This document shows positions 160 to 23,710 of a DNA stretch of 64,000 nt, piece after piece. The DNA comes from a virus: positions 64,001 to 128,000 of the IMG/VR virus record IMGVR_UViG_3300027759_000050, one strand, 5' to 3'. The notes beneath the pieces were generated by a model. The model saw nothing but the letters and a program-made list of their open reading frames with translations. It made no database searches and was not told where the DNA came from. A program made the translations under genes and the position numbers. Position 1 is the stretch's first letter, and each line of letters opens with the position of its first letter.

Positions 160-603
160 TTAGAAACTAAATTTAAGACCAGCAGTGATACGGCTTCCGT
201 TTTCTGCAACAACACGGTCTTGACCAGCTTGGTAACTGTAATCAAGTCCTGCTGAAACTGATTTAGTGATTGGCAAACGAGCACCAATACCAACTACAGC
301 GGCATAACCATCAGAAGATGGGCCTGATTGGCTATCAATAAAAAGAAGACCAAATTTAGCATCAACTGCTACAGGTCCCATTTTTGCTACCTCTACAGCA
401 TTTACCAAACTATAAGAGTCGGCTGTTGTAGAACGATTGAATCCTGCGGTTAGGTCATAACCTTTTACGGTTTCACCTACTGTAACACCCCAAACATTTT
501 GCGTTGAGCTAAGATTAGTGCCATCATTGATACCAACTTCTAAAGCTTGTGCGCTTGCAAATACACCCATAAGAGATGCGATAAGTACGAGTTTTTTAAT
601 CAA
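160..603 (-). CDS. Small outer-membrane beta-barrel protein (OmpA/OmpW/Lom-like)
   Basis: Signal peptide ending AQA, alternating hydrophobic strands, C-terminal beta-signal GLKFSF; AAGGAG RBS upstream. Confidence 0.75.
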   Translation of the reverse strand: MIKKLVLIASLMGVFASAQALEVGINDGTNLSSTQNVWGVTVGETVKGYDLTAGFNRSTTADSYSLVNAVEVAKMGPVAVDAKFGLLFIDSQSGPSSDGYAAVVGIGARLPITKSVSAGLDYSYQAGQDRVVAENGSRITAGLKFSF

Positions 604-629
604 AATTTTCTCCTTTTGTTGAACAAATT

Positions 630-929
630 GCCGACTGATTGGATAATAAGGACAGTCGGCGAAACCTCAGCTTAGCTTAAGCAGCTAGGCGATATGCGGA
701 GTCGTTTGCATTTACGTTTTTTTACTTTTATCGACTATCTGTGTCGGGTAGCCAATTAGTTTACTCATATGTCGGTCGATTACCGTATCATCCCCATCAA
801 AAGCATATTAGTTCTCAGTGACCGATGCCGTTAAATAACACCGATGTATCTAATATGCTTATGGTGGAGATGGAGGGAGTCGAACCCTCGTGTCGCCATC
901 GTTTCAAAAAATCAGTTTACTACCATTAC
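630..929 (-). ncRNA. ssrA: Circularly permuted (two-piece) tmRNA gene
   Basis: Acceptor piece with T-arm GAGGG-TTCGACT-CCCTC and CATCTCC-ACCA (3' end 862) lies upstream of the coding piece starting GGGGATG (795); 7-bp acceptor stem with G3.U; tag ANDSAYRLAA* at 709-677; terminal hairpin 630-660. Confidence 0.92.
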
Positions 930-1022
930 AACACACTTAGGGAGATTCTCACTCCCGTACCCACAATGTGGGAACTTAGTCTAATTGCACAGCCGAGCCA
1001 TGTCCCAGTTCATAAGTGTGTT
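930..1022 (-). ncRNA. Putative structured RNA or leader in front of the tmRNA
   Basis: 10-bp closing stem AACACACTTA/TAAGTGTGTT enclosing CCCAC-ATT-GTGGG and GGGAG-TGAGAAT-CTCCC hairpins. Confidence 0.5.
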
Positions 1023-1030
1023 AAGTATGT

Positions 1031-1059
1031 ATTATATCACAGGATTAGAGACTTGTCAA
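1031..1059 (-). promoter_or_regulatory. sigma70 promoter for the tmRNA locus
   Basis: TTGACA-17-TATAAT. Confidence 0.85.
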
Positions 1060-1077: not shown

Positions 1078-1842
1078 TTATCCCAGCGTGCCGAGTCTGG
1101 TGCCTGTTGTTAACCAATTGATATATGCATTTGAACCGGTCGTTGTGCAATAACCAGCTGCGCCACCTGATGTACCTAGACCTGCACCGTTACTTCCAGC
1201 AGTACCTAAATTACCGCCTGAACCACCGGCCCAACCCCATCTATCATTACCGTACCCACCAAAAGAACCACCTGAACCACCTGCACCACCAGTTGTAAGT
1301 GTTCCTGCTGTTCCTGCTGTTTGGCCGTAATTCTGAGTTGAACCATTTTTATTCAATGGGCCACCAGCACCGACAATATTACCCGCGCCGCCGCCACCGC
1401 CGCCACCATAACCATCTATGCCACCATTACCACCAGCTCCGCCTCCGCCGCCACCACCACCGCCGGCGATTGTTCCATTGTTGGTAATACTTACTGAGAA
1501 GCTCGCCGTAAGTGCTGGGCCGCCCGGTCCACCGACACTGCCAGCTGAACCAGAACCGCCAATTGAACCTGTACCACCTGTGCCACCTGCACCAGCTATA
1601 GTTCCTGAATTGATTATTTCAACACGGTCACCTGTAGCAAATCCTGAGATTGTTAATGCTGGAGTGGAAATCGATGTACTTCCTATAACCACACCTGAAG
1701 GAATTATGTAAGTTACAACCGATGAACCACTAACATAATTCGGAAACATCGCCGGATTAACGGTCACATTGGTGGCACTAGATGCTGTCACCGATGCAAC
1801 TAATCGCCTCTTTGATAAGAAATAATTAAAAGAACTAAACAT
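1078..1842 (-). CDS. Glycine-rich tail-fibre adhesin (T-even gp38-like)
   Basis: Poly-G motifs (IAGGGGGGGGG, YGGGGGGGAG), gp38-like end GTRLGTLG; start 1842 overlaps upstream stop (TAATG). Confidence 0.65.
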   Translation of the reverse strand: MFSSFNYFLSKRRLVASVTASSATNVTVNPAMFPNYVSGSSVVTYIIPSGVVIGSTSISTPALTISGFATGDRVEIINSGTIAGAGGTGGTGSIGGSGSAGSVGGPGGPALTASFSVSITNNGTIAGGGGGGGGGAGGNGGIDGYGGGGGGGAGNIVGAGGPLNKNGSTQNYGQTAGTAGTLTTGGAGGSGGSFGGYGNDRWGWAGGSGGNLGTAGSNGAGLGTSGGAAGYCTTTGSNAYINWLTTGTRLGTLG

Positions 1843-2213
1843 TAAGCATAACCTTGAGAAAAGCTTCCATACCAATATGTTCCGTCACAAATGAATGAGA
1901 GTATGTCGTTTCTGCTGGCTGTTGTAGTTATTGTTGGTGCCGTTCCATAAGGCCATTTTACACCAGTAAAAGTTGCTGTAAAACCTCCAGCAACAGTGTA
2001 AAGCATCAGAATAAAAGAAACACCGGACGCAACAGAAGGCATTGTAAAAGTGCAACTTTGATTCAAAGTGCAAGTTTGATATGTCCCAGTTGCCAGTGAA
2101 AGTGTTTTTGATGTTCCAGAATTACCAATAGCCACGACACCTTCATTATAAGGACCACTTAGTGTTAGACCTGGTAAAGAAACTCCAGAAGTGCCATTAA
2201 TTGTAACAGGCAT
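1842..2213 (-). CDS. Virion structural / tail-fibre-associated protein
   Basis: Thr/Ser/Gly-rich with WP.GTAPT.T and D+LSF motifs typical of fibre tip modules; late promoter upstream. Confidence 0.55.
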   Translation of the reverse strand: MPVTINGTSGVSLPGLTLSGPYNEGVVAIGNSGTSKTLSLATGTYQTCTLNQSCTFTMPSVASGVSFILMLYTVAGGFTATFTGVKWPYGTAPTITTTASRNDILSFICDGTYWYGSFSQGYA

Positions 2214-23596: not shown

Positions 23597-23694
23597 CATA
23601 TAGAAGCATACTGCTTGCCTGACCGAAAAAGTCGTGGTAAACTATAAGAGAAAGAGGTTCGAATCCTCGGGACTGGTAGTGTGCTTCTATATGG
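23596..23694 (+). ncRNA. tRNA-mimic-like small RNA (long closing stem plus T-arm)
   Basis: 19-bp stem with two G.U pairs; GAGG-TTCGAAT-CCTC at 23654-23668; GTGGTAA D-loop-like stretch. Confidence 0.65.
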
Positions 23695-23710
23695 TAACCA
23701 AGGACATAAA

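Follow-up and report, generated by a model that had tools for sequence, protein, structure and literature searches.

A circularly permuted tmRNA gene in a T4-like phage genome

The 64,000-nt stretch of DNA analysed here (the window; bases 64,001-128,000 of IMG/VR virus record IMGVR_UViG_3300027759_000050) carries on its minus strand a gene for transfer-messenger RNA (tmRNA, ssrA) in circularly permuted order, with the T-arm, the acceptor 3' strand and the CCA all lying upstream of the acceptor 5' strand (Table 1). ARAGORN called a permuted tmRNA ("tmRNA*") at 586..954(-) with the tag ANDSAYRLAA, and the Rfam covariance model tmRNA_permuted (RF04321) matched over its full length (positions 1-213) with 99.7 bits (E = 3e-18; gathering score 47 bits). 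Both matches are far above chance. The features of the gene and their conservation in related phages make it highly likely that this is a functional circularly permuted ssrA of betaproteobacterial-type architecture and a long-standing accessory gene of a clade of T4-like myophages. An earlier note on this DNA, made from the letters alone, had described the gene, and each of its coordinates proved correct on the minus strand (CCA ending at 862, a 66-nt segment at 861-796 with an 11-bp stem, G1 at 795), as did the 7-bp acceptor stem with G3:U70 and the tag (sequence, ARAGORN); its reading as a phage-borne tmRNA gene that is intact and circularly permuted is borne out by the ARAGORN call and the RF04321 score.

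The acceptor piece opens with the 5' strand of helix P2 (GGUAG...) and supplies CAUCUCC, which pairs with GGGGAUG of the coding piece to form a 7-bp acceptor stem spanning the 66 nt in between. This stem contains the G3:U70 alanine identity element (G793:U868). The intervening segment, in which UUGAU immediately precedes G1, folds with -17.8 kcal/mol (z = -4.0), a value equalled by none of 200 shuffles. The coding piece comprises the D-loop analogue GGUAAUCGA, the P2 3' strand, a small hairpin (CGAC-ACAGAUA-GUCG), the tag frame with resume codon GCA at 709 and stop codon UAA at 679-677, and a 3' hairpin. The acceptor and coding pieces of the window copy co-fold into the acceptor stem, the T-arm and a long P2 helix. 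The 3' hairpin was also considered as a terminator; this was rejected, as it is the conserved beta-type hairpin described below and is followed by only a weak U-run.

Table 1. Features of the tmRNA gene and its surroundings, in positions of the window
Feature	Position	Strand	Details and basis
Acceptor piece	862..924	-	RF04321 alignment starts at 924; 5' end approximate
T-arm GAGGG-UUCGACU-CCCUC	889-873	-	Sequence; pairs covary in relatives
Acceptor 3' strand CAUCUCC	872-866	-	Sequence; pairs covary in relatives
Discriminator A	865	-	Sequence
Encoded CCA	864-862	-	Sequence
Intervening segment, 66 nt	796..861	-	Predicted to be excised from the precursor
Closing stem of the intervening segment, 11 bp	860-850 with 811-801	-	AAGCAUAUUAG with CUAAUAUGCUU
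Coding piece	620..795	-	RF01850 alignment 975-620, ARAGORN, co-fold; 3' end approximate
Acceptor 5' strand GGGGAUG	795-789	-	G1 = 795
Tag frame GCA AAC GAC UCC GCA UAU CGC CUA GCU GCU UAA	677..709	-	ANDSAYRLAA and stop; ARAGORN
3' hairpin	630..660	-	8-bp stem GCCGACUG/CAGUCGGC, conserved 15-nt loop UCCUUAUUAUCCAAU; beta_tmRNA alignment, covariation, fold
Sigma-70 promoter TTGACA-17-TATAAT with TG extension	1031..1059	-	12/12 consensus matches, top site in the region
Leader, about 100 nt, multi-hairpin cassette	925..1024	-	11-bp closing stem UAACACACUUA / UAAGUGUGUUG; minimum free energy -33.5 kcal/mol, z = -3.1
Downstream open reading frame (ORF), 147 aa	160..603	-	Signal peptide, C-terminal ...GLKFSF; ribosome-binding site 17 nt after the 3' hairpin

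The source record (160,679 bp with a 127-bp terminal overlap, CheckV completeness 100%) is a complete T4-like myophage. It contains a T4-type gene set (major head protein, scaffold, portal, sheath, baseplate wedge, terminase) together with a DnaB-like helicase, ribonucleotide reductase and PhoH, and its capsid protein shares 65% identity with its counterparts in Methylophilales phage Melnitz, Synechococcus phage S-SKS1 and Pelagibacter phage Mosig. Outside the window, 66 kb from the tmRNA gene, 28 tRNA genes on the minus strand (130,533-138,445 of the record) together serve all 20 amino acids; the tmRNA and these tRNAs together give the extent of the translation capacity carried by the phage. 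Neither SmpB (PF01668) nor an integrase was found in the phage genome. The reading as an attP fragment of a temperate phage was rejected, given a complete gene and a genome in which no integrase was found. The portal gene runs off the contig end, its 308 aa corresponding to positions 253-501 of a 528-position profile, so the 127-bp "direct terminal repeat" is most likely an overlap from circular assembly and not a physical end.

The tmRNA is of beta-like architecture

Three covariance models describe two-piece tmRNAs of bacteria, with gathering cut-offs of 84 bits for beta_tmRNA (RF01850), 50 bits for alpha_tmRNA (RF01849) and 70 bits for cyano_tmRNA (RF01851). The window gene aligned to the beta model over all of its positions (1-331) with 80.1 bits, to the alpha model below cut-off and in part (36 bits, model positions 40-272), and to the cyano model below cut-off (16.4 bits). 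The 3' hairpin at 660-630 aligns to the hairpin that follows the tag in the beta model, with its CCUUxUUAxCxAA-type loop; the window gene is devoid of the terminal 9-bp GC-rich hairpin of that model, and its intervening segment is long. As judged from these alignments, the tmRNA is of beta-like architecture but is not a member of the curated RF01850 family.

Of 50 phage records with a permuted tmRNA, 31 score above the beta cut-off (85.7 to 158.6 bits), among them its closest relatives (101.4, 99.0 and 85.7 bits for L140, L141 and L145). Two further relatives (L207 and L208) have a gene at the same locus that is of alpha type, with 112 and 95 bits on the alpha model versus 58 and 19 bits on the beta model. 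Alpha- and beta-type genes thus occupy the same locus in related phages, which is a modest new point.

Conservation and covariation in related phages

To follow the gene through related genomes, we used the PD-(D/E)XK exonuclease gene located 1.3 kb upstream as an anchor, which yielded 80 related IMG/VR loci whose exonuclease is 50-92% identical to that of the window. ARAGORN found a permuted tmRNA downstream of the exonuclease gene in 32 of the 80 loci, and the Rfam model found one in 21 of the 47 remaining records, so that at least 53 of 79 related phage contigs (about two thirds) have a permuted tmRNA; most of the records without one are fragments of 4-25 kb. When the pattern of the tRNA-like domain alone was used, 30 permuted tmRNAs were obtained among the first 119 IMG/VR matches. 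This distribution indicates inheritance of the gene by descent in a large clade of phages.

Covariation was analysed in 29 phage genes aligned with MAFFT, with no structure fitted to the alignment. RNAalifold recovered four helices from it, namely P2-proximal, T-arm, acceptor stem and 3' hairpin, the acceptor stem continuing, by way of ACCA/UGAU, into the stem that closes the intervening segment. In these helices, 95% of the cells are paired, compared with 41-48% when the partners are slid by one to three columns, and 32 of 40 pairs exhibit compensatory changes, including all seven tested stem pairs of the 3' hairpin; none of 500 shuffles reached any of the observed covariation measures. G3:U70 is invariant in the alignment and present in each of 151 parsed permuted genes.

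Compensatory changes extend to the closing stem of the intervening segment, with up to 11 sequences changed on both sides of a single pair. A segment predicted to be excised is thus not junk: the maintenance of its closing stem by compensatory change, a modest addition to what is known, points to a role in the folding or processing of the precursor and suggests that the segment helps to join the acceptor strands or marks the processing sites.

The tags vary widely among the related phages while their ends, AND... and ...(L/M/I/V)AA, are kept, and LAA terminates 50 of 58 phage tags. Two relatives that share the tag of the window (L143 and L183) differ from it by synonymous changes only (GAC/GAU, UCC/UCU, UAU/UAC, GCU/GCC) and in the stop codon (UAA/UGA).

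L140 and L141 have an exonuclease with 89-92% identity to that of the window, and the comparison with them uncovered a mosaic within the gene. Identity amounts to 95% in the tag module and 3' hairpin but drops to 58-59% in the acceptor piece, 33-35% in the intervening segment and 49% in the 5' part of the coding piece. Upstream, L140 and L142 share 94-97% identity with the window in promoter and leader; downstream, the start of the 147-aa ORF is 97-100% identical in L140 and L141. Divergence of the tRNA-like parts between near-identical flanks indicates that the whole tRNA-like module was replaced as a unit, with one breakpoint at the boundary to the leader and the other shortly before the resume codon. 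Such an exchange of the tRNA-like module between otherwise near-identical phages is a modest new point as well.

Relation to the two-piece tmRNAs of cultured phages

The earlier note had started from the premise that phage tmRNAs are one-piece, which is outdated: among 133 unique phage tmRNAs, 53 two-piece genes have been described, mostly from aquatic phages (Buchholz et al, 2022; PMC9004378), and a tmRNA database of 2025 holds 79 phage sequences (PMC11915505). Table S1 of PMC9004378 lists the phiCbK group, pelagimyophages, cyanophages, Pseudomonas phage SM1 ("Permuted") and others, and 17 of 47 contigs that cluster with Melnitz by gene content have a permuted tmRNA (PMC9004378). The class of two-piece phage tmRNAs has therefore been catalogued already, including in the nearest cultured relatives, and the window gene opens no new category; what it adds is a large uncultured T4-like clade with a permuted tmRNA of beta type.

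Those nearest relatives, the marine phages Melnitz (host OM43) and Mosig/HTVC008M (host SAR11) of the Kyanoviridae, are T4-like and have the same permuted form (RF04321 113 and 94 bits). The two-piece tmRNAs of Melnitz and Mosig are located behind early promoters, and no integrase is reported for Melnitz (PMC9004378). In contrast to the beta-like gene of the window, however, the tmRNAs of Melnitz and Mosig are of alpha type (106.7 and 67.6 bits on the alpha model versus 25 and 50.7 bits on the beta model). Melnitz also has a glutamine riboswitch just 3' of the tmRNA, which we confirmed (L223:1886-1934, RF01739 52.8 bits), whereas the Rfam search found no riboswitch near the window tmRNA. The two-piece tmRNAs of Caulobacter and the phiCbK group are likewise of alpha type, a model on which the window gene reaches only 36 bits (cut-off 50). 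For Caulobacter, the permuted gene is reported to yield two base-paired RNAs active in trans-translation (Keiler, Shapiro and Williams, 2000, as cited in PMC9004378 and PMC11915505).

Beta-type genes are present in Pseudomonas phage SM1, Xanthomonas phage XacN1 and Stenotrophomonas phage BUCTxx99 (RF01850 111.2, 107.8 and 81.3 bits). These are phage types unrelated to that of the window: SM1 has 93 kb (a siphophage according to Table S1 of PMC9004378), XacN1 is a 385-kb jumbo phage and BUCTxx99 has 109 kb. No feature is annotated over the tmRNA matches in the SM1 and XacN1 records. Pseudomonas and Xanthomonas themselves are known to carry a one-piece tmRNA, and on that basis the form of a phage tmRNA need not mirror that of its host. 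For the same reason, we dropped the inference of a host from the tmRNA type. The beta-type genes in these phages, the exchange of the tRNA-like module and the presence of alpha- and beta-type genes at the same locus together make tmRNA type a weaker marker of host and host switching, a use that has been argued for Melnitz. At the DNA level, blastn and megablast searches with the tmRNA and with the first 20 kb of the window returned no matches to cultured phages; for the high-scoring relative L200, similarity of the tmRNA to cultured phages consisted of partial matches in the tRNA-like part only.

Bacterial beta-type genes and the direction of transfer

We collected bacterial beta-type genes by scanning species genomes with a generic beta-type pattern. 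Matches came mainly from high-GC Rhodocyclales (Azonexus/Dechloromonas, Thauera, Azoarcus, Accumulibacter, Propionivibrio), with further genes in Advenella, Pelistega, Cupriavidus and Oxalobacteraceae. The bacterial type shares with the window type the gene order, the break point, G3:U70, the conserved 3' hairpin and a tag of the ANDxxFALAA type. Its intervening segments are closed, as in the phage genes, by a stem of the AAGC...GCUU type (AAGCRCAU/GUGYGUUU); this bacterial stem (AAGCGCAU.../...GUGUGUUU) is homologous to the closing stem in the window but shorter. The two groups differ in the length of the intervening segment (23-45 nt with a median of 28 in bacteria versus 66 nt in the window and a phage median of 67) and in the CCA, which is encoded in 18 of 93 bacterial genes and in all phage genes, including the 29 of the protein-anchored set, which was not selected for CCA. 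In addition, the terminal GC-rich hairpin of the beta model is missing from the window tmRNA.

Sequence similarity to individual bacterial genes is limited. Between the window and the mainly Rhodocyclales loci of the pattern scan, matches extend over only about 31-53 nt, the best bacterial BLAST matches spanning about 35-53 nt in the tRNA-like domain or the tag region. The tag module of the window had no exact match in 185,579 species genomes and hence gave no host by that route. The closest low-GC bacterial gene, in the 2.0-Mb Burkholderiales genome G118, is 70-82% identical over 84-200 nt to several of the related phage genes; it does not match the window tmRNA itself.

In a quick, unrooted tree of 151 permuted genes, a short RNA with many long branches, the window falls into a phage-only clade. 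The bacterial groups (Rhodocyclales, part of the Alcaligenaceae, and the Cupriavidus and Oxalobacteraceae copies) form separate tight clusters interleaved with far more diverse phage lineages. Only four of 151 sampled Burkholderiales genomes score above the beta cut-off; the sample includes the unpublished genome G079, which has a sub-threshold match only. Cupriavidus and Herbaspirillum have a standard tmRNA alongside permuted copies, whereas Advenella, Pelistega and G118 have the permuted gene only.

The Cupriavidus genome G052 (L297) has three beta_tmRNA matches (281, 184 and 125 bits) and one standard tmRNA (217 bits). Three Oxalobacteraceae loci hold permuted beta-type copies (L295:771-1116, L312 and L317) whose tags end in ...AYGT or ...AFGT and not in ...LAA. 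In the Herbaspirillum genome (L295), which has a standard tmRNA as well, the permuted copy is situated 2 kb from a phage-type integrase.

The diversity of the phage genes in the tree, the low frequency in Burkholderiales, the standard tmRNA kept beside permuted copies in Cupriavidus and Herbaspirillum, the proximity of an integrase and the module swap allow a further interpretation, in which the beta-type permuted tmRNA is maintained and spread chiefly by phages and not by bacteria, and in which it behaves as two exchangeable cassettes (tRNA-like and tag). We regard this as possible but rather doubtful; the tree, unrooted and built on a short RNA with long branches, is compatible with phage-mediated spread of the beta-type gene but does not show the direction of transfer. 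If it were true, the two-piece tmRNA of the bacterial "third lineage" would go back to a phage gene that had taken the place of the one-piece ssrA of the host.

Proposed function and alternative explanations

From established tmRNA biology we infer how the RNA would be processed, charged and used in tagging, and what the phage would gain from it, in the following sequence of events. A consensus early-type sigma-70 promoter would drive one precursor containing the leader hairpin, the acceptor piece, the intervening hairpin, the coding piece and perhaps the downstream ORF. Host tRNA-processing enzymes would remove the intervening segment, presumably by RNase P cleavage at G795 and 3' trimming to the CCA at 862, and the two RNAs would stay together through the 7-bp acceptor stem and helix P2. 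Host alanyl-tRNA synthetase (AlaRS) would charge the RNA through G3:U70, and SmpB, which would have to come from the host because the phage has none of its own, would bring it to stalled ribosomes together with EF-Tu. Translation would resume at GCA (709) and append A-ANDSAYRLAA with its canonical ...LAA degradation tag. The phage, which also supplies tRNAs for all 20 amino acids, would probably benefit from extra ribosome-rescue capacity during shut-off of host transcription and degradation of mRNA. A role in ribosome rescue during infection, as proposed in the earlier note, is plausible.

Several points weigh against a functional, long-standing phage gene of beta-type architecture. The beta_tmRNA score is 3.9 bits below the curated Rfam cut-off. 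The generic RF04321 model flags a few non-canonical pairs in P2, where co-folding of both pieces finds an alternative, continuous helix. Neither PK1 nor a pseudoknot between the 3'-hairpin loop and upstream sequence could be assigned, the candidates being 3-4 bp long, nearly invariant, ambiguous in register and left uncounted. The tRNA-like module of the window is at most 75% identical to that of any member of the set and forms a long branch in the tree. Finally, the phage is uncultured, and compatibility with the SmpB, AlaRS and RNase P of the host is assumed.

Among the alternatives, the one that fares best is that the phage RNA acts on the host, competing with the host tmRNA for SmpB and stalled ribosomes and thereby altering tagging and degradation or recycling amino acids. 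The tag of the window ends in RLAA and not ALAA, and tags vary widely among related phages while their ends are kept; beta-type genes also occur in phages isolated on Pseudomonas and Xanthomonas, genera known to have a one-piece tmRNA. Selective tagging of host proteins has been raised as a possibility (PMC9004378), and a tmRNA-like RNA of mycobacteriophage DS6A is reported to inhibit the host tmRNA (as cited in PMC11915505). The window tag, however, keeps the canonical N-terminal ANDxxY and C-terminal LAA, and the gene retains the full tRNA-like domain, G3:U70 and CCA that normal rescue needs, while the sequence offers nothing to tell a decoy from a working tmRNA. We consider action on the host unlikely.

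If the gene were a passenger, recently taken up from a host whose tmRNA is permuted and devoid of a selected role in the phage, this would account for the bacterial beta-type architecture and for the fact that some tags of related phages also occur in bacteria (ANDESYALAA in Advenella and Pelistega, ANDEKFALAA in Cupriavidus). A passenger is difficult to reconcile with the occurrence of the gene in at least 53 of 79 related contigs, ARAGORN placing it after one and the same exonuclease gene in 32 loci, with the strong covariation and the synonymous-only change of the tag, and with a consensus promoter of its own. In addition, the bacterial genomes scanned contain no exact match to the tag module and give BLAST matches of only about 35-53 nt, and the window belongs to a phage-only clade. 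We regard the passenger explanation as very improbable. Direct capture from a host with a permuted tmRNA, one of two origins envisaged in the earlier note, is in any case not needed to explain a gene inherited in a phage clade and found as beta type in Pseudomonas and Xanthomonas phages.

The other origin envisaged there was an independent permutation, which would have founded a fourth lineage of two-piece tmRNAs. The beta score slightly below the gathering cut-off (80.1 versus 84), the intervening segment of 66 nt compared with a bacterial median of 28, and the CCA always encoded in phage genes and in only 18 of 93 bacterial ones could be taken as signs of such a lineage. The poor fit to all three bacterial models expected of a new lineage was not seen, though, as beta_tmRNA aligned end to end (positions 1-331) with 80.1 bits; 31 of 50 phage records, including L140, L141 and L145, are above its cut-off, and the break point, the closing stem and the loop of the 3' hairpin are common to phage and bacterial beta-type genes. 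An independent permutation is hence even less probable than a recent passenger. An assembly artefact or a false gene call, conceivable for a contig from a metagenomic assembly, can practically be dismissed given the same permuted order with covarying stems on dozens of independent contigs from different samples and the agreement of two independent programs (ARAGORN and the Rfam model).

Promoter, leader and neighbouring sequences

Between the promoter and the acceptor piece is the leader, which ends a few nucleotides ahead of the acceptor piece and would be removed by processing. It is absent from most relatives, in whose alignment the TATAAT box immediately precedes the acceptor piece. The leader and the intervening segment have similar closing stems, and both stems end a few nucleotides before the first G of a mature piece. 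This resemblance hints, speculatively, at a common processing logic for leader and intervening segment.

No terminator was called between the 3' hairpin and the 147-aa ORF, which may be co-transcribed with the tmRNA. The encoded protein has no match to a Pfam or PHROG family; it looks like a small outer-membrane beta-barrel and, together with its signal peptide, suggests a Gram-negative host. An ORF with a signal-peptide-like start (MKKL...) directly follows the tmRNA in several relatives, too.

The region between the exonuclease gene and the tmRNA promoter (1078-2213, minus strand) contains two ORFs of 265 and 123 aa with weak PHROG matches to tail fibres. In L140, the promoter begins at most 5 nt after the exonuclease gene, which makes the region a 1.2-kb insertion/deletion polymorphism.

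A cassette of about 100 nt elsewhere in the window (23600-23700, considered on both strands) has a closing stem, GAAGCAUACUGC / GGUAGUGUGCUUC on the plus strand, that is similar to the one around the intervening segment of the tmRNA. It gave neither an Rfam match nor an ARAGORN call. Its interior contains a T-arm-like hairpin (GAGGTTCGAATCCTC, plus strand), and the GGTAAAC ahead of this hairpin is reminiscent of how the tmRNA acceptor piece begins. A consensus TTGACA-17-TATAAT promoter on the minus strand adjoins the cassette.

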